From UHGV virus genome UHGV-0124814: 16,162 bases of DNA. One strand, written 5' to 3'. The translations under genes and the position numbers were made by a program. This document shows positions 4,193-11,678 of this stretch, in pieces; the first letter of the stretch is position 1; every line of letters begins with the position of its first letter. The stretch is from a virus. Under the pieces are notes generated by a model. It was given only the letters and a program-made list of their open reading frames with translations. It did not search any database and was not told the DNA's origin.

Positions 4193-4792
4193 TCAGAAAC
4201 GGTATCCGATACCAACAATAAATGCATCCGTTCGCCAGTCGCCACTACCGGAACCTTCATAAGCAAGGTCAATGGTCACGGATTCGGTCGGATTAAACTG
4301 CACGCCAGCCCCCCACGCCAGAGACGTGTTGCTGTGGCGACCGTCATCACTTCCGGTCAGCACATCGTGCGTTTTCCCCTTGTTGTCAGTTACGCGGAGA
4401 TAATCCCCGGAGAAAGTCGAAATACGGCTGTAAGCCACACCCGCCATCGCATACGCGCTGAACCATTCATTCACGCGCACAGACGGCCCCGCCATTACGC
4501 TGAACCAGCGGTTACGAACGGAATCTTCATGCCAGCGGGTATCGCTGTAACGGGTCAGCTGGCGATTCTTGTCTCCTGCATAGCTGAATGACGTCACCAG
4601 CCCCAGTGTGTCCGTAAACTCATAACGGTATTTCACGTTAATCCCGTTCAGATCATCACTGCCGGGGACGTTCGTCGAGGCATGAAGATACCCCGCGCTC
4701 AGCGTGGACTGATGTTCAGACGCCCATGCAGGCGCACCGGATACGGCCAGACAAATGGCTGCGGACAAAATTGCTGCACAAACTTTACGCAT
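4193..4792 (-). CDS. lom: Lom outer-membrane protein (Ail/Lom/PagC family beta-barrel)
   Basis: 199-aa ORF 'MRKVCAAILSAAICLAVSGAPAWASEHQSTLSAGYLH...GIGYRF' with signal peptide and C-terminal aromatic residue; near-identical to lambda Lom as recalled; SD GAGAGG upstream. Confidence 0.9.
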   Translation of the reverse strand: MRKVCAAILSAAICLAVSGAPAWASEHQSTLSAGYLHASTNVPGSDDLNGINVKYRYEFTDTLGLVTSFSYAGDKNRQLTRYSDTRWHEDSVRNRWFSVMAGPSVRVNEWFSAYAMAGVAYSRISTFSGDYLRVTDNKGKTHDVLTGSDDGRHSNTSLAWGAGVQFNPTESVTIDLAYEGSGSGDWRTDAFIVGIGYRF

Positions 4793-4862
4793 AATTACCT
4801 CTCGCTTTTCTGCAATAAAAAAGGCGTCACTCCTGACGCCCTTTATTGGGGTTATAAATATT

Positions 4863-6026
4863 TCAACGAATACTGATGCCGGAAGCGGCTTTTTTGGTCA
4901 CAATCACCGTACAGTCGGTGATATTGCCTGCCCCCTGATTGCCTTTCTGGAAAATCTTAAACTCCAGAGTGACGCTACCACCACCACTAGGCATATCAAT
5001 AACTGCACTGTAACTACCGGGAATGGCCCCTTTAGTTTCTCTGGATGCGATTAATACGCCGTTTTTGCGAACTTCAAAACCATAACCCGTGTATCGCGTG
5101 CCTCCTGGGTTATTTCCGCTCCCCGGATCGTCATACGCTATACCGTTAAAAATAATGGGCGGAATAATAATCTGGCGGTCAAAGTTATGATCATCGCTGA
5201 TGGTGACTGTAACCGTACCGTTTGGTGTTTCCGTGTTACCCCACGTACCGACTTTTTTCGGGAAGGCTTTTGATACAGCTTTAACGAAATCCCCTCTGAC
5301 CTGGGTCGCCTCCAGCATGCCCTTAATCGTACAGTTCTGGTTAATCTTGACATTGTTGAGCGTTCCTGAGTTCGCATTCACACTGCCACTGATATCCGCA
5401 TTTTTAGCGGTCAGCTTTCCGTCTGATGTCAGGGAAAATACCGGAGGACTGCCACCGCTGGTAATGGTGGGGGCCGTCAGGCGCTTCAGGAACACGTCGT
5501 TCATGAATATCTGGTTGCCCTGCGCCACAAACATCGGCGTTTCATTCCCGTTTGCCGGGTCAATAAACGCGATACGGTTAGCGGCAACCAGAAACTGGCT
5601 CAGCTTGCCTTCCTCCGTGTCCTCCATGCTGAGGCCAATACCCGCGACATAATGTTTGCCGTCTTTGGTCTGCTCAATTTTGACGCCCCACATGGCATTC
5701 CATTTATCGTTAGCGTCCTTCCACTCTTTCGAAAACTCCTCCAGTCTGCTGGCGTTATCTTCCGTCAGCTCAAAGTTTTCCAGCAGTTCCTTGCCGAGAT
5801 GCGTTTTATTGATCAACCCTTTATAAAAATTCAGATAACCTTCCGCATCATCGCTCGCCCGACCGACGGCCTCCACAAATGCCGATTTACCAACGGTGTT
5901 CACGCTGCGGATATAAAAGTAATAATCATAACCTGGCTTAATATTGCTACTGGCGGCTATCCAGTACAGCGCCGTACCAAGATAACGCGCGCTGGTTTCA
6001 ACCTGCCTGATATCGATAAGCGGATT
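4863..6026 (-). pseudogene. J: C-terminal fragment (~387 codons) of tail tip/host-specificity protein J; N-terminal part of the gene deleted
   Basis: Open frame from 6026 down to the stop at 4863 with no ATG at its 5' end (first candidate is GTG at 5903); translation resembles the lambda J C-terminus as recalled. Confidence 0.8.
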
Positions 6027-6359: not shown

Positions 6360-6755
6360 TCACATTTCATAGGTAATGACATAAGTCAGATCGGCAGAAC
6401 TCCACAGGCCCGCATCATCGTCGCGCCGGTAGTCATAGCCGCTGGCCACCATACTGGTGATCAAATCTGACAGTGCCGGGACATCGCTCATCACCGGATA
6501 AATCCGGGACTCCATCCACGAATCCAGCTCTGAATCCGGCACCTGAGCAGGCAGGAAAACTTCAATATGCAGCTCCGCCTGCCAGGTATCACTGTCCAGC
6601 TCTTCGCCCGTGTATTCAGCGCCGGTGAGATAAACGGCAATTGCCGGAAAATCCGCCTCATCAAAAACAGCGGGGCGACCATCAAAAAGCGTCGCCCCGG
6701 TGTCATGCTTCTCCAGTGCATCCAGTACGGCTGCACGGAGTTCAGTATGTTTCAT
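6360..6755 (-). CDS. U: Minor tail protein U (tail terminator), apparently intact
   Basis: 131-aa ORF '[36 protein letters not shown]...' matching lambda gpU in sequence and length; start ATG overlaps the upstream stop (ATGA). Confidence 0.9.
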
Positions 6756-7165
6756 CGCTTTATTACCATTCTCAGTTGATGCTGCAGCGCATAGCCCAGC
6801 TCTTTCGGAAGACGTTCACGCCGTATCCGTTCAATATTCTGTTTAAACGCCGTGGTAAGCGGCACCGCCATCGGGATTTTCACCACATCAATGGGGTAAC
6901 GGTTTTTCCCGGCCACACGCTGCATGACATGCCACCGGCCATTTTTCAGTTGCTGAATAAACGCGCCGGGAATACGACGGTTTCCCACCACAAGCACGCT
7001 GCCGCCACCTTTCAGGGATGAACGCTGCCCCTTTTTACGACGTCTGCGGCGGGAAAGGACAACCCGCGCGTTACCCAGCTTGATTACGGGCAAATCCTGC
7101 CAGTTCTGAATGGTACGGATACTCGCGCCGAAAATGTCAGCCAGCTGCTTTTTGTTGACTTCCAT
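6752..7165 (-). pseudogene. In-frame fusion of the first 23 codons of terminase small subunit Nu1 to the C-terminal part of a Z-like tail completion protein
   Basis: 'MEVNKKQLADIFGASIRTIQNWQ' is the lambda Nu1 N-terminus, then sequence switches at ~7096 to a basic tail ('DLPVIKLGNARVVLSRRRRRKKGQ...') that I believe is the gpZ C-terminus; ATG sits at the conserved distance from cos. Confidence 0.7.
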
Positions 7166-7375
7166 TGTTCATTCCACGGACAAAAACAGAGAAAGGAAAC
7201 GACAGAGGCCAAAAAGCCCGTTTTCAGCACCTGTCGTTTCCTTTCTTTTCAGAGGGTATTTTAAATAAAAACATTAAGTTATGACGAAGAAGAACGGAAA
7301 CGCCTTAAACCGGAAAATTTTCATAAATAGCGAAAACCCGCGAGGTCGCCGCCCCGTAACCTGTCGGATCGCCGG
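7166..7375 (-). other. Lambda-type cos packaging site (cosQ side ~7345-7375, cosN 12-nt end at 7333-7344, cosB toward Nu1)
   Basis: Reverse complement of 7333-7344 is GGGCGGCGACCT, flanked by 'GATCCGACAGGTTACG' on one side and 'CGCGGGTTTTCGCTATTTATGAAAATTTTCCGG...' leading to the Nu1 ATG on the other, as in the lambda left end; sequence diverges from lambda beyond ~7395. Confidence 0.8.
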
Positions 7376-7566
7376 AAAGGACCCACCAAAAATGATAATG
7401 ATTATCAAATACGTTTATCACACTGATATTCAGAATCACTACTGAAAGACTCCCTTTGTGGTGCGCGAGGGATGCGCATAAAAAAACCACCAGCAAATGC
7501 CAGTGGCTAAAGATATTCATTGCGAATAACCATCACAAAACAACTTAACTCGTGAGGGTAGAAATT

Positions 7567-7971
7567 TTACTCGAGGCCAAATTTCTTCTTTAAATAGGCC
7601 TTCGTTAACTCCAGCCCAACATCTTTGATTGTACTCAAAGGGGCATCGCTCATTGACTTTAATTTCTCAAAAACCGTAGGTTCATTTAATGCCTGGGCGA
7701 ATTCTTGTCCCTGCGCAGATAGTCGCACGTCGGTACCCATATCTAGCATATGGCCACAATGGCGCATGTAGCCCAGTTTAGTTATGTCATCCGTTATTAG
7801 ATCTTTATTACTGATATAACCTTGCTCAATAAGAAGTAGATAATGAAACATCCCTTCATTCGAGCAGATATCGTACCCCGCATTAGCTAAGTCTTTTGTA
7901 GATATAAAGGGAGTTTTCGCTTTCAAAAATACCTCAAGCATCCCCTTCATGTATTCTAAATTTTTAACCAC
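7567..7971 (-). CDS. Hypothetical protein, 134 aa, AT-rich moron
   Basis: GTG start at 7971 preceded by strong SD (TAAGGAGGTTTTT-GTG); no family recognised. Confidence 0.55.
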   Translation of the reverse strand: MVKNLEYMKGMLEVFLKAKTPFISTKDLANAGYDICSNEGMFHYLLLIEQGYISNKDLITDDITKLGYMRHCGHMLDMGTDVRLSAQGQEFAQALNEPTVFEKLKSMSDAPLSTIKDVGLELTKAYLKKKFGLE

Positions 7972-8106
7972 AAAAACCTCCTTAGGATAATTGGAGGTCT
8001 AGAATACCGTTTGCAAGCACGTTGATAAATCATTATCACAGGCACTCAATGAATGCCTGCTGTAATTGCGTACGGTAATGAACGTAAAAAACCGCCCGAG
8101 GTATAT

Positions 8107-8331
8107 TTAGACATTAGATGGCGCTTTGTCAGTATAGACCCGGTACGCCCTGACAAACATCCCGTTACATTCAGAGTCCGCCTTGATATACGCCAATTCG
8201 TAACCCCGATGCTTTAGCTCTTCACGAGCTCTTTTCTCTTCCTTAGCCATGAAGTTAAGATCTTTAATTTCTGAGTAGGTATATGTTCCCACTATAAAAT
8301 CTCTGCCTGGCCGTCCATTTATCAGTTCCAT
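8107..8331 (-). CDS. Hypothetical protein, 74 aa, AT-rich moron (ORF-track version extends to a TTG at 8397)
   Basis: ATG at 8331 preceded by GGGAGGA SD; protein 'MELINGRPGRDFIVGTYTYSEIKDLNFMAKEEKRAREELKHRGYELAYIKADSECNGMFVRAYRVYTDKAPSNV'; no family recognised. Confidence 0.5.
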   Translation of the reverse strand: MELINGRPGRDFIVGTYTYSEIKDLNFMAKEEKRAREELKHRGYELAYIKADSECNGMFVRAYRVYTDKAPSNV

Positions 8332-8424
8332 GTGTCCTCCCAAAAAGTTGGTAGTCAGAACATACCATGCTAAGCGAGGTGAAAGCACCTTTATCAAGCC
8401 CCCCGCAGATAGACTTTGTAATGG

Positions 8425-8712
8425 CTACTTCTTCAGAAATGATTCGATGAACTCACGCCGGGGATGACGATAGTTCAGAATATCTTCTGGCATCCTCATA
8501 AAGCGGTTGTTGCCGTCTTTGGCAGTAACGAAACAGCAGTGAACTCCGCAGACATCCGTTTTGATCGTGTCGCCATACTCAAAAAGCAACTGCGCCATCT
8601 TCTCTTGCCATTCTTGCGGCATAGCCTCCATGAATACTCTCGGCATCACGCAGAACGACGCATGCGTCAGGCCAAACCACAATTGCAGGTCTTTACGATA
8701 TTCTTCATCCAT
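8425..8712 (-). CDS. Hypothetical Cys-containing protein, 95 aa ('...DVCGVHCCF...'), moron
   Basis: ATG at 8712 with AAGG ~10 nt upstream, lying 19 nt downstream of a terminator-like hairpin; no family recognised. Confidence 0.5.
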   Translation of the reverse strand: MDEEYRKDLQLWFGLTHASFCVMPRVFMEAMPQEWQEKMAQLLFEYGDTIKTDVCGVHCCFVTAKDGNNRFMRMPEDILNYRHPRREFIESFLKK

Positions 8713-8730
8713 CGTCTTTACCTTTGTTGC

Positions 8731-8756
8731 AATAAAAAGCCCCGCGAATGCGAGGC
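8731..8756 (-). terminator. Rho-independent terminator-like hairpin (GCCUCGC-AUUC-GCGGGGC then UUUUUAUU) between Rz/Rz1 and the moron ORFs
   Basis: 7-bp GC-rich stem (one G-U pair), 4-nt loop and T-tract read on the - strand. Confidence 0.5.
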
Positions 8757-8930
8757 TAAATCCTGGTGTTTGTGATGACTGGCTCTTATCTCAACGCAGC
8801 CCCTTACCGCGCGCAAGATGCTCAATATCAAGCATCAGCAATGAGATGTTAAATCTGGATTCACTCCAGAAGTGATCACCACCCTGTCTACAGAGCCAGA
8901 TGTGAAGGATGATGAGTAAAATTATCGCTA

Positions 8931-9398
8931 TCATCGAAGGCATTGCGTCCTGATGTATTCCTGAAGCGTTCTCAGTGCTGTTTGGTCGCGGATAATTCCG
9001 TCCCGGATACCGAGAACGTTTCGTCCAGCAACTGGAGAGAGTTCGACGGTGGCATCATTGCCCATGCCGGAGGCGCTGGAGGTTTCGGCTGAGGATGGCA
9101 CAGGGCATTTTCCTTTGACGAGCACCCTGCCACCATTATCAAGCTTGCGACGAAGAGCATCATTTTCAGCTTTCGCATCAGCTAACTCCTTCGTGTATTT
9201 TGCATCGAGCGCAGCAACATCACGCTGACGCATCTGCATGTCAGTAATTGCCGCGTTCGCCAGCTTCAGTTCTCTGACATTTTTGTCGCGCTGGGCTTTG
9301 TAGGTAATGGCGTTATCACGGTAATGATTCAGCCCCAGACTAAGCACACCACAGGCTACCAGCAGGACAATAATCACCACACACAGAACACGGTTCAT
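8931..9398 (-). CDS. Rz: Rz i-spanin
   Basis: From ATG at 9398 (SD GGTGGTGA): '[17 protein letters not shown]...[60 protein letters not shown]...' closely resembling lambda Rz; the longer track ORF starts at an upstream codon. Confidence 0.85.
8972..9178 (-). CDS. Rz1: Rz1 o-spanin lipoprotein, embedded in Rz in the +1 frame
   Basis: 68-aa ORF '[21 protein letters not shown]...' with lipobox 'VAGC' and proline-rich stretch '[11 protein letters not shown]'; embedded position typical of Rz1. Confidence 0.8.
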
Positions 9399-9497
9399 AT
9401 CACCACCAACGGATTGTCCAGACCAGAACAGCAATGGCCACAATACGAATGGCAAATGCCATTGCCCGAATAAGTTCAGCACTCATCTTTTTAAAGT

Positions 9498-10433
9498 TCA
9501 CGATTTCAGCGCAATGACCAGTTTTGCCAGCCCATACAGCATCGGAGACACAGCAATAGCGTATGTATTTTTCCAGTAATACGTCGTGTCACCACAAATC
9601 CACGGCACATTTACAGCACTGCCACCATGACACTGCGCGTTAAACACAGTGAGGTCAGCACGAAACTGCTTCAGCATGGCTGTAAACAGCGCAGGTTGCT
9701 GTGCGTAGGTGGCGGCGCTCATGTCAAACTCTCCCTGCATCCAGCACACCGCCAGCAACACATTTTTCGGGTTCTTCTGTAATGCCGCTTTGGTGCGTGC
9801 GATCAGGTCCTGATATAACGGTTTACCCACACCCCAGCGTGCCGAATCCTGGCTGGCCCCCGTGTCCGCACTGAATGTCCCCTCCGCGCCCTGGGTGAAT
9901 GCCGAACCACCACGACAGCATGGTACCAGCAGGATCCCCGCGTTATTCGGGATATACGGAAGCAGTTTTTTGGCAATATGTAAGCCCTGGCCGACACAGC
10001 CGTACTGCCCTTTGCTCAGGTCTGCCTTCGGATGATTCAGCGTACTCATATCCTGCACATCATGCAGACAGTGGTCAGCCGGGATGATGTCGTTATACGT
10101 ACAACTCTCTCCACCCGGAGTTACCGTGCTGCGGCGCGCCAGCTGTTTAATGCGCGGATCCGGAGCATCGTAAGAATCCGGTAACGGAAGCCCTTCACCG
10201 TAGGCCATGCCGTTGGACTGTCCGGCAAGCACAACCACGTAGAACCAGTCCGGCTCAGATGAAGGGCCGACCTGTGGATCTCCTTCAATAGCCACCGCCT
10301 GCATCAGTGTGTACGGCGTAATGGCAACCGGTCCGCCATATGGCTGCCAGCCCTCTTTCAGTTTGTGTGTCAGCTTTTCCGCAAGGTCTGACGGCGACGC
10401 CGCCCTGACAACATCATAGTGTTTAAATGCCAT
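9498..10433 (-). CDS. Prophage NanS-p-like sialate 9-O-acetylesterase (N-terminal DUF1737-like segment plus esterase core), probably C-terminally truncated
   Basis: 311-aa ORF with 'VVLAGQSNGMAYGEGLPLPD', 'GILLVPCCRGGSAF', 'CWMQGEFD', 'WICGDTTYYWK' resembling E. coli NanS/YjhS as recalled; strong SD GGGAGGA; ORF ends ~100 nt before Rz. Confidence 0.8.
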   Translation of the reverse strand: MAFKHYDVVRAASPSDLAEKLTHKLKEGWQPYGGPVAITPYTLMQAVAIEGDPQVGPSSEPDWFYVVVLAGQSNGMAYGEGLPLPDSYDAPDPRIKQLARRSTVTPGGESCTYNDIIPADHCLHDVQDMSTLNHPKADLSKGQYGCVGQGLHIAKKLLPYIPNNAGILLVPCCRGGSAFTQGAEGTFSADTGASQDSARWGVGKPLYQDLIARTKAALQKNPKNVLLAVCWMQGEFDMSAATYAQQPALFTAMLKQFRADLTVFNAQCHGGSAVNVPWICGDTTYYWKNTYAIAVSPMLYGLAKLVIALKS

Positions 10434-10923: not shown

Positions 10924-11000
10924 TGGCGCGTTGTACTGGATTCGAACCAGTGACCGATTGCTTAGAAGGCAATTGCTCTGTCCGGCTGAGCTAACAACGC
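10924..11000 (-). tRNA. tRNA-Arg (anticodon TCT)
   Basis: Reverse complement folds as cloverleaf: acceptor GCGTTGT/ACAACGC, D-arm GCTC..GAGC, anticodon stem ATTGC/GCAAT with loop CTTCTAA, T-arm ACTGG-TTCGAAT-CCAGT, encoded CCA. Confidence 0.85.
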
Positions 11001-11013
11001 ATGATGCAGATAA

Positions 11014-11090
11014 TGGACCGCCATCGGGGACTTGAACCCCGCGCAGCCAGCTTCGAAGGCTGGCGCTCTTTCCTGATGAGCTAATGGCGG
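11014..11090 (-). tRNA. tRNA-Arg (anticodon TCG)
   Basis: Cloverleaf: acceptor CCGCCAT/ATGGCGG, D-arm GCTC..GAGC, anticodon stem CCAGC/GCTGG with loop CTTCGAA, T-arm CGGGG-TTCAAGT-CCCCG, encoded CCA. Confidence 0.8.
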
Positions 11091-11097
11091 TATGTGA

Positions 11098-11173
11098 TGG
11101 TGGCCCTTGCTGGATTTGAACCAGCGACCTGGCGATTATGAGTCGCTCGCTCTCACCACTGAGCTAAAGGGCC
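11098..11173 (-). tRNA. tRNA-Ile2-like (anticodon CAT; could formally be Met)
   Basis: Cloverleaf: acceptor GGCCCTT/AAGGGCC, anticodon loop CTCATAA, T-arm GCTGG-TTCAAAT-CCAGC, CCA; overall very similar to E. coli tRNA-Ile2 as recalled. Confidence 0.8.
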
Positions 11174-11222: not shown

Positions 11223-11678
11223 TCAAACGATTAAATCCTGAACTTCCCTGACTGTCTGCTCAAAACGTCCGGTCTCCAGTTCAACGCCAATCGCACGACG
11301 CCCGAGCGCCAGTGCCGCTTTTACCGTTGAACCTGAGCCCATAAAAAAATCTGCAACCTGGTCTCCCGGACGACTGCTCGCGTTGATTATCTGCTGCAAC
11401 ATTTCTGCCGGTTTTTCGCACGGATGTTTCCCTGGATAGTACTGCACCGGTTTATACGTCCACACATCGGTGTACGGCACCTGCACCGTCACACCGAAAT
11501 ACCTCCGCAAATTTTTATATTCACTCAGCAGTTCCATATACTGCCGGTTCAGCTCACTGTATGTGCTGACCAGTTGGTAATGGGACTTTTCCAGTTCTCC
11601 CCGCTGATGTTTCTCTTCTGCCACCCGGGCAAACAGCGACTGTAATTTCAGATAATCGCTTTCGTTCGGTATCCGGCG
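11223..11678 (-). pseudogene. C-terminal fragment of a phage DNA N6-adenine/N4-cytosine methyltransferase; N-terminal half absent
   Basis: Frame open from 11678 with no ATG (first start-like codon is GTG at 11624); contains 'HPCEKP' and C-terminal SAM motif 'FFMGSGST' but no DPPY-type motif. Confidence 0.65.

Follow-up and report, generated by a model that had tools for sequence, protein, structure and literature searches.

Do three small genes lodged between Rz and cos of a lambdoid prophage form one system, or do they merely share an address? The window analysed here, a 16,162-nucleotide (nt) stretch of the virus genome UHGV-0124814, is a defective lambdoid prophage of Escherichia coli whose late genes lie on the minus strand. 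Between its Rz gene and its cos region a preliminary description, made from the letters alone, had picked out three open reading frames (ORFs) on the late strand and grouped them as an AT-rich cassette, a candidate for lysogenic-conversion or anti-phage cargo. All three were found as described: ORF95 (8712..8425, minus strand; 95 amino acids, ATG start), ORF74 (8331..8107, minus strand; 74 amino acids, ATG start, lying within a mechanically called ORF of 96 amino acids that begins at a TTG at 8397) and ORF134 (7971..7567, minus strand; 134 amino acids, GTG start).

The reading that we favour, with rather better than even confidence, is that the Rz-cos slot holds three separately acquired single-gene modules, probably late-transcribed, and not one system. 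Taken individually, the three are ordinary accessory genes, uncharacterised and situated in a known hotspot; nothing points to a joint system or to a metal cluster, and the separate-module result guards against filing them as a new defence system of three genes. The most novel feature of the region is instead a conserved 37-nt hairpin between ORF74 and ORF134, which is absent from Rfam.

Independent distribution of ORF95, ORF74 and ORF134

We asked whether the three ORFs are genes at all. Both of the strong Shine-Dalgarno sites that had been pointed out are present, GGGAGGA 3-4 nt ahead of the ATG of ORF74 and AAGGAGG 5 nt ahead of the GTG of ORF134. Purifying selection, measured as the ratio of nonsynonymous to synonymous substitution rates (dN/dS), was evident for ORF95 (0.03-0.14), for ORF74 (0.11, measured against a 69%-identical homologue) and for ORF134 (0.075-0.087). 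Because dN/dS lies between 0.03 and 0.14 throughout, all three are real genes and not chance frames. The AT-richness ascribed to the region held for ORF134 (GC content 0.40) and ORF74 (0.436) and was borderline for ORF95 (0.479, the window as a whole being at 0.495); the GC content of Rz is 0.52.

We then surveyed co-occurrence across ~100 related loci (L numbers below), using the three proteins, Rz and the terminase subunits as tblastn queries. The cassette did not survive this comparison: each gene occurs without the others, and the homology breaks fall between them. ORF95 alone directly follows the Rz block in dozens of lambdoid or P22-like prophages (L035-L057 and others), ORF74 and ORF134 occur without ORF95 at L023, L024 and L011, and ORF134 occurs alone at L025, L026 and L007. 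A homologue of ORF74 is found without ORF134 at L099, L109 and L110, and at L107 a homologue of ORF134 stands directly after the spanin with no small partner gene. By blastn, mosaic junctions lie at ~8729, 8391-8424, 8066 and 7436, which delimits an ORF95 module of ~8388-8729 and an ORF134 module of ~7436-8066. Among 5,426 complete E. coli genomes, ORF95 was present in 72, ORF74 in 36 and ORF134 in 36, with the whole three-gene arrangement in 30 E. coli genomes. The three genes are not co-inherited in the way that components of one multi-gene system would be.

The preliminary description had also proposed that a terminator-like hairpin upstream insulates the genes from late transcription. Such a hairpin with a T-run is indeed present (8738..8757, minus strand; fold −14.1 kcal/mol, z −3.8), ~25 nt from the ATG of ORF95. 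It belongs, however, to the conserved Rz block and is present where these genes are not: phages without the three ORFs still match from 8729 upward, as does phage Kati, which matches window positions 8729-9335, and phi80 likewise has a terminator after Rz1. In lambdoid phages, Q-modified late transcription must cross the Rz-cos slot to reach the head and tail genes. Since the Q-modified polymerase must read through the slot, the terminator cannot insulate the three genes from late transcription. A consensus promoter scan called nothing in the gap between terminator and ORF95, nor upstream of ORF74 or ORF134, and neither ORF95 nor ORF74 has a canonical terminator of its own within the window. 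All three genes lie on the late strand, within what would be the path of Q-dependent transcription toward the packaging genes, and ORF95, which appears to have no room for its own promoter, would be made in lytic growth. We infer that late transcription is the likelier timing of expression for the three genes.

Lambda carries bor at this position, as a divergent gene. The slots of lambda and phi80 are in the same place as that of the window, after Rz/Rz1 and ahead of cos and terminase. The description of the slot as a classic position for cargo is borne out, as the stretch between lysis and cos or packaging genes is known for accessory, defence and counter-defence genes (PMC11364771), and that of phi80 holds rha, tai and ati (PMC11364771). 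The phi80 slot is further like that of the window in having a terminator after Rz, small late-strand genes and the same hairpin, there 36 nt long, between rha and tai. It differs in its proteins, as those of the window are unlike Rha, Tai, Ati, orf65 and orf66, and in orientation, as tai is divergent whereas the three ORFs of the window are all on the late strand. Homology to Tai or Ati was considered because phi80 AtiEcA is a 76-amino-acid protein in the same slot, and was rejected: blastp of the three proteins against phi80 orf62-66 gave nothing below E 0.06, with no meaningful tai/ati alignment and no similarity to TaiEcA (orf63) or AtiEcA (orf64).

Searches of curated collections agreed with the earlier impression that none of the proteins could be placed by eye, and no curated family of known function was found for any of the three. 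Pfam and NCBIfam returned no accepted match; weak Pfam matches to Glyco_hydro_59_C, DUF3882 and DUF6645 scored far under threshold and were discarded. None of the three proteins matched a PADLOC-DB 2.0 family at E ≤ 1, and a literature search by accession or PHROG number found no paper on them. The suggested role in lysogenic conversion or anti-phage defence is disfavoured by the empty PADLOC search, the dissimilarity to Tai and Ati, and the occurrence of relatives of ORF95 in virulent phages.

Protein families represented in the slot

The structure predicted for ORF134 is a confident winged helix, with a three-helix bundle and a beta-hairpin wing, which carries three extra C-terminal helices. 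A BFVD search with it returned only weak, unnamed winged helix-turn-helix matches, and the protein is assigned to phrog_585. Against Pfam DUF2513 (PF10711), ORF134 itself gave no match at E ≤ 1 and did not reach the gathering cutoff of 29.6 bits. Four of 12 close homologues, together with a homologue from a Yersinia phage, match DUF2513 below threshold at E 0.0015-0.005, and these sub-threshold matches span nearly the whole profile. A protein of Klebsiella phage ST846-OXA48phi9.2, encoded in the same slot, scores 47.7 bits against DUF2513 (cutoff 29.6), and residues 6-130 of ORF134 are 30% identical to it (pairwise E 1e-13, database tblastn E 1e-5), which amounts to full-length homology to a bona fide DUF2513 member. 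Judged by these alignments and the predicted fold, ORF134 is a divergent DUF2513-type winged-helix protein. With DUF2513, an uncharacterised winged-helix family of bacteria and phages, it shares end-to-end similarity and the winged-helix fold; it differs in its three extra C-terminal helices and in lacking a direct profile match. The DUF2513 literature names the family only in passing and gives no function, and ORF134 has no match to any curated helix-turn-helix or Aca-type family. From its fold it might act as a regulator that binds DNA, or binds protein through the winged helix.

Homologues of ORF134 recur between lysis and packaging genes, beside packaging genes of differing types: Nu1/A in the window, HNH and terS at L026, DUF1441 and GpA at L107, and another terS/terL pair in the Klebsiella phage. 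At L007 the neighbours are a ParB-like protein and a 457-amino-acid ORF taken as TerL. ORF134 has its own downstream terminator, as a moron would, in the form of an intrinsic-terminator-like hairpin with a T-run (7485..7508, minus strand; fold −13.9 kcal/mol, z −3.75). This terminator travels with the gene, falling inside the ORF134-only homology blocks of L025 (7436-8066) and L026 (7478-8056). Upstream of the ORF134 homologue at L026, positions 4523-4873 hold a 116-amino-acid, extremely acidic, D/E-rich ORF which has no Pfam match and whose composition resembles that of DNA-mimic anti-restriction and anti-CRISPR proteins.

A large phage domain family without a name, covered by PHROGs 3527, 33008 and 10794, includes ORF95 as a stand-alone copy of the domain. 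The match to phrog_3527 falls at profile positions 139-230 of 233, the C-terminal third. All 122 diverse representatives of the family match these PHROGs, as ORF95 does; the profiles run to 178-233 positions, of which ORF95, as the bare domain, covers only the last third. We found 41 close clusters and, by profile search, 1,426 cluster representatives at E ≤ 1e-3. The domain is mostly at the C-terminus of longer proteins, one member carries two tandem copies, and the N-terminal extensions of long members share no common Pfam domain. Zinc ribbons, N- or C-terminal, occur in ~9 of the 122 representatives, two of which match the Lar restriction-alleviation family; these Lar-like and other ribbons are a weak hint only. 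Proteins of the family with a tandem domain or zinc ribbons include P0064, P0068, P0081, P0086, P0089, P0125, P0160 and P0170. No Pfam, NCBIfam or PDB counterpart of the family was found, and a profile of the 122 sequences run against the PDB gave nothing.

The 'CGVHCC' cysteine cluster remarked upon in ORF95 proved not to be conserved. C59 is serine in nearly all close homologues and C55 is variable, and across the 122 representatives the corresponding columns hold mostly D/E, gaps, I/P/L, G/S and T. The motif is peculiar to the lineage of the window, and ORF95 shows no sign of a metal-binding cysteine cluster. Phages of Salmonella, Klebsiella, Cronobacter, Vibrio, Pseudomonas, Stenotrophomonas and Acinetobacter, both virulent and temperate, carry relatives of ORF95, as does Sashavirus; these relatives stand at the end of early or replication gene clusters or immediately upstream of terS. 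Because these relatives occur in virulent phages, lysogenic conversion is argued against. Our best guess, and only a guess, is a lytic-cycle accessory role of the host-takeover or counter-defence type, which we consider likelier than lysogenic conversion; ORF95 would then act on a host or nucleic-acid target. The family could represent a new host-takeover or counter-defence domain, and at ~1,400 clusters, without a Pfam entry or a solved structure, it is worth following.

ORF74 has a separate PHROG, phrog_6100, which it matches over its full length, and only five clusters were found. A tblastn search of 50,697 phage records returned nothing, and homologues at 69-83% identity share the same slot, beside other small genes. 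In all 36 of the complete E. coli genomes that carry it, PGAP/RefSeq annotates no gene at this place (for example NC_018658.1, ~2,918,547-2,918,768). ORF74 is a narrow, lineage-restricted orphan gene. PDB searches with the single protein sequences gave matches at chance level only. For ORF74 the match was to IcmE/DotG; no matched stretch passed alone, and it likely reflects a Glu/Lys/Arg-rich segment.

The 37-nt hairpin and alternative readings of the slot

Between ORF74 and ORF134 lies the conserved 37-nt hairpin AATTACAGCAGGCATTCATTGAGTGCCTGTGATAATG (8031..8067, minus strand; −17.2 kcal/mol, z −4.1). It is present as a single copy in the window, where none would be expected by chance, and it recurs in at least 120 IMG/VR contigs and, 94-97% identical, in 31 phage records, among which are phi80, mEp390, Pectobacterium ZF40, Salmonella FSL SP-016 and many Klebsiella phages. 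Copies elsewhere include L101 4302-4337 (phi80), L112 3414-3451, L115 2501-2536 (ZF40), L116, L117 and L118-L236. Among 119 distinct contexts, the conserved length is only ~41 nt. In 111 of the 119 the hairpin follows the end of a co-oriented ORF at a median distance of 3 nt, and the neighbours are highly varied, forming 49 upstream and 64 downstream ORF clusters. In 90 of the contexts the hairpin has an endolysin gene in the same orientation upstream (median 1.2 kb), a TerL gene in the same orientation downstream (median 1.5 kb), or both; 4 contexts are discordant. The canonical form is present at one copy per genome in 94 E. coli genomes. In relatives ORF95 itself directly precedes this hairpin, while in the window the stretch after ORF95 has no significant fold.

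The stem is preserved in variants by compensatory changes, including both ways to close the interior loop. Over 60 distinct variants, cells changed on both sides of a pair numbered 44, compared with 17.2 ± 2.8 in shuffles (0/500). The covariation score was 0.168 versus 0.080, falling to at most 0.076 with the partners slid, and pairing was 84.9%, falling to at most 41% with the partners slid; RNAalifold recovered the inner stem. Compensatory changes thus exceed the controls, as for a structured RNA or single-stranded DNA element, with the caveat that the sequences were gathered by similarity to the palindromic core and that the signal expected of a DNA palindrome is no different. The hairpin was rejected as an intrinsic terminator, as only 17 of the 119 copies have at least five T in the next 8 nt. 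An Rfam 15 scan of 7000-9600 left the hairpin and the other intergenic regions unmatched, its sole match at E ≤ 1 being a chance microRNA elsewhere, and a literature search by the core sequence of the hairpin found no paper.

From its placement we infer that the hairpin, which sits right after the stops of many unrelated cassette genes, might delimit modules, either as a shared boundary for cassette exchange by homologous recombination, or as an RNA 3′-end structure, or as both. Genes swapped at it may include ORF74, ORF95, DUF2513, DUF2560, rha and the neighbourhood of defence genes such as tai, and it may set the 3′ ends of cassette transcripts. In its fullest version this idea makes the hairpin a dedicated element, structured and orientation-specific, that bounds cassettes in the slot between the lysis and packaging genes of Enterobacterales phages. 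We advance it speculatively, along with the separate suggestion that the ORF95 domain is perhaps a new takeover or counter-defence domain, and regard it as rather unlikely as it stands. The hairpin could also help to find accessory cargo in prophages, defence and counter-defence genes included.

We take the hairpin to resemble integron attC sites and repetitive extragenic palindromic (REP) elements, in that it is an imperfect palindrome located just 3′ of a wide range of unrelated ORFs. The likeness extends to its fixed orientation and to a structure kept by compensatory change; it differs in occurring at one copy per phage, not in arrays or in hundreds, and in that its sequence itself is highly conserved. 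Short conserved boundary sequences have been proposed to mediate the mosaicism of lambdoid phages (cited in PMC3029335), a route usually dismissed since such sequences are rarely found (PMC3029335). The hairpin is like these in being a short conserved sequence at junctions, although the idea does not require hairpin structure, compensatory changes or fixed orientation, and the element of the window has all three. If the hairpin is an exchange site, it would be direct evidence for this route to mosaicism; if so, it would be a phage analogue of attC and REP-type elements and a concrete mechanism for a long-debated source of mosaicism.

Several observations weigh against the view of the slot as late-transcribed separate modules, and against the roles suggested for the proteins and the hairpin. 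Relative to an intact relative in E. coli O104:H4, the copy in the window has lost holin, endolysin and Nu1 through Z, and no Q gene or late promoter was seen in the window, so late transcription may be absent altogether in this prophage copy. The AlphaFold2 model of ORF95 is poor (predicted local distance difference test score, pLDDT, 54), which makes a Foldseek search of the PDB with it meaningless. ORF134 is mildly acidic (isoelectric point 5.9) and has few basic residues in its putative recognition helix, and for these reasons its binding to DNA is not assured. ORF74 and ORF134 occur together at ≥99% identity in 36 of the 36 E. coli genomes that carry them, and because they are always together there, a functional pair in this lineage has room to exist. 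An extended −10-like motif, TGnGATAAT, lies 60 nt upstream of ORF134 within the hairpin, making expression of ORF134 in the prophage state possible. Finally, among the variant cells of the hairpin, G.U exceeds A.C by only 25 to 16.

These points bear on three other readings of the genes. The pairing just described would suit a two-gene unit, in which ORF74 is a small effector, for instance an anti-defence protein, and ORF134 a winged-helix autoregulator as in acr-aca, or in which the two form a toxin-antitoxin-like pair. They are adjacent wherever both occur, variable small genes precede ORF134 homologues elsewhere (such as the acidic 116-amino-acid ORF at L026), and the arrangement is like the pattern of a variable small gene plus a conserved helix-turn-helix gene. 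We nevertheless consider such a unit unlikely, given the partnerless ORF134 homologue at L107, the ORF74 homologues with other downstream genes and no ORF134, the boundary hairpin and terminator remnant between the two genes, and the failure of ORF134 to match curated helix-turn-helix or Aca-type families. The −10-like motif, for its part, would make ORF134 a classical moron that is expressed from the prophage and regulates genes of the host or of incoming phages, leaving ORF95 and ORF74 as late genes. ORF134 does travel together with its terminator and the 95 nt of DNA ahead of it, its GC content is the lowest of the three, and the motif is kept in the window, L025, L026 and phi80. Like the genes of the window, morons stand singly between conserved late modules, with hairpins or terminators at their flanks. 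The definition of a moron also includes a promoter belonging to the gene, and the consensus scan called none for the three genes; no −35 element accompanies the motif, which is the 3′ arm of the boundary hairpin. Because a loop-closing variant (CTG) destroys the motif while the stem stays, the motif is probably not selected as a promoter, and we rejected the hairpin as a promoter on the same ground. On balance a moron role for ORF134 is doubtful. The notion of a single operon of all three genes, expressed in the lysogen, shielded by the upstream terminator and conferring phage resistance or another conversion trait, draws on the slot being a known defence hotspot (PMC11364771), on a somewhat AT-rich region and on the full arrangement in 30 E. 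coli genomes. It is very improbable in view of the independent gene distribution and the junctions between the genes, the lack of a PADLOC match or Tai/Ati similarity, the ORF95 relatives in virulent phages, and a terminator that is part of the Rz block with no promoter found between it and ORF95.

The hairpin has an alternative of its own. Because G.U exceeds A.C only 25 to 16, the covariation fits a dimer-bound DNA palindrome as well as it fits an RNA stem, and the element might be a site bound by a phage or host protein, whether an operator or an accessory site for packaging or replication, instead of an RNA element or a recombination boundary. Its arms change together and form an almost perfect inverted repeat, the excess of G.U over A.C is weak, and there is one copy per phage, all in favour of a bound palindrome. 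Its orientation is nevertheless fixed with respect to the flanking genes (111/119 with a co-oriented ORF upstream; lysin and TerL consistent in 90/119), and the 49 upstream and 64 downstream clusters include no common neighbour to encode the binding protein. We regard a protein-bound palindrome as conceivable, if on the unlikely side.

Two further stretches recur in otherwise unrelated loci, one of 41 nt at 8391-8431 (88% identity) and one of 29 nt at 8938-8966 (96.5%), with sites of recurrence at L011, L023 and the end of Rz in phi80. The stretch at 8391-8431 begins with CATTACA, as the hairpin does, and has no significant fold. Both may be further junction sequences.

The surrounding prophage

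The intact relative in E. coli O104:H4 (strain 2011C-3493; NC_018658.1, 2,918,004-2,919,380) is 98.8% identical over window positions 7258-9000, and IMG/VR contig UViG_2609459844_000002 is 100% identical to positions 7000-9500. Directly upstream of the three ORFs, all on the minus strand, are a truncated DUF1737/SASA esterase (10433..9498), which abuts Rz, and Rz/Rz1 (9482..8931). Downstream of them the cos region (minus strand) precedes the Nu1 start at 7165, and is followed by a Nu1-Z fusion (7165..6752, minus strand) in which the first 23 codons of Nu1 are joined in frame to the end of gene Z. In late-strand order U, a J fragment, lom and tail-fibre genes come next (minus strand).

A 50-amino-acid frame, ORF50 (8791-8943, minus strand), overlaps the end of Rz and is annotated by RefSeq as 'hypothetical protein' (phrog_11822). 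It was rejected as a fourth gene, with dN/dS of at least 1 (1.9, or dS 0 with dN > 0), and is probably conserved DNA and not a gene.

At the start of the late-strand order described here stands a DNA-methylase fragment (11624..11223, minus strand), followed by three tRNA genes (10924-11173, minus strand) upstream of the esterase fragment. The tRNAs are Arg-tct, Arg-tcg and one with a CAT anticodon, which ARAGORN calls Met and RefSeq Ile, and a tRNA trio ahead of the esterase fragment is the arrangement seen in Stx-type lambdoid prophages.

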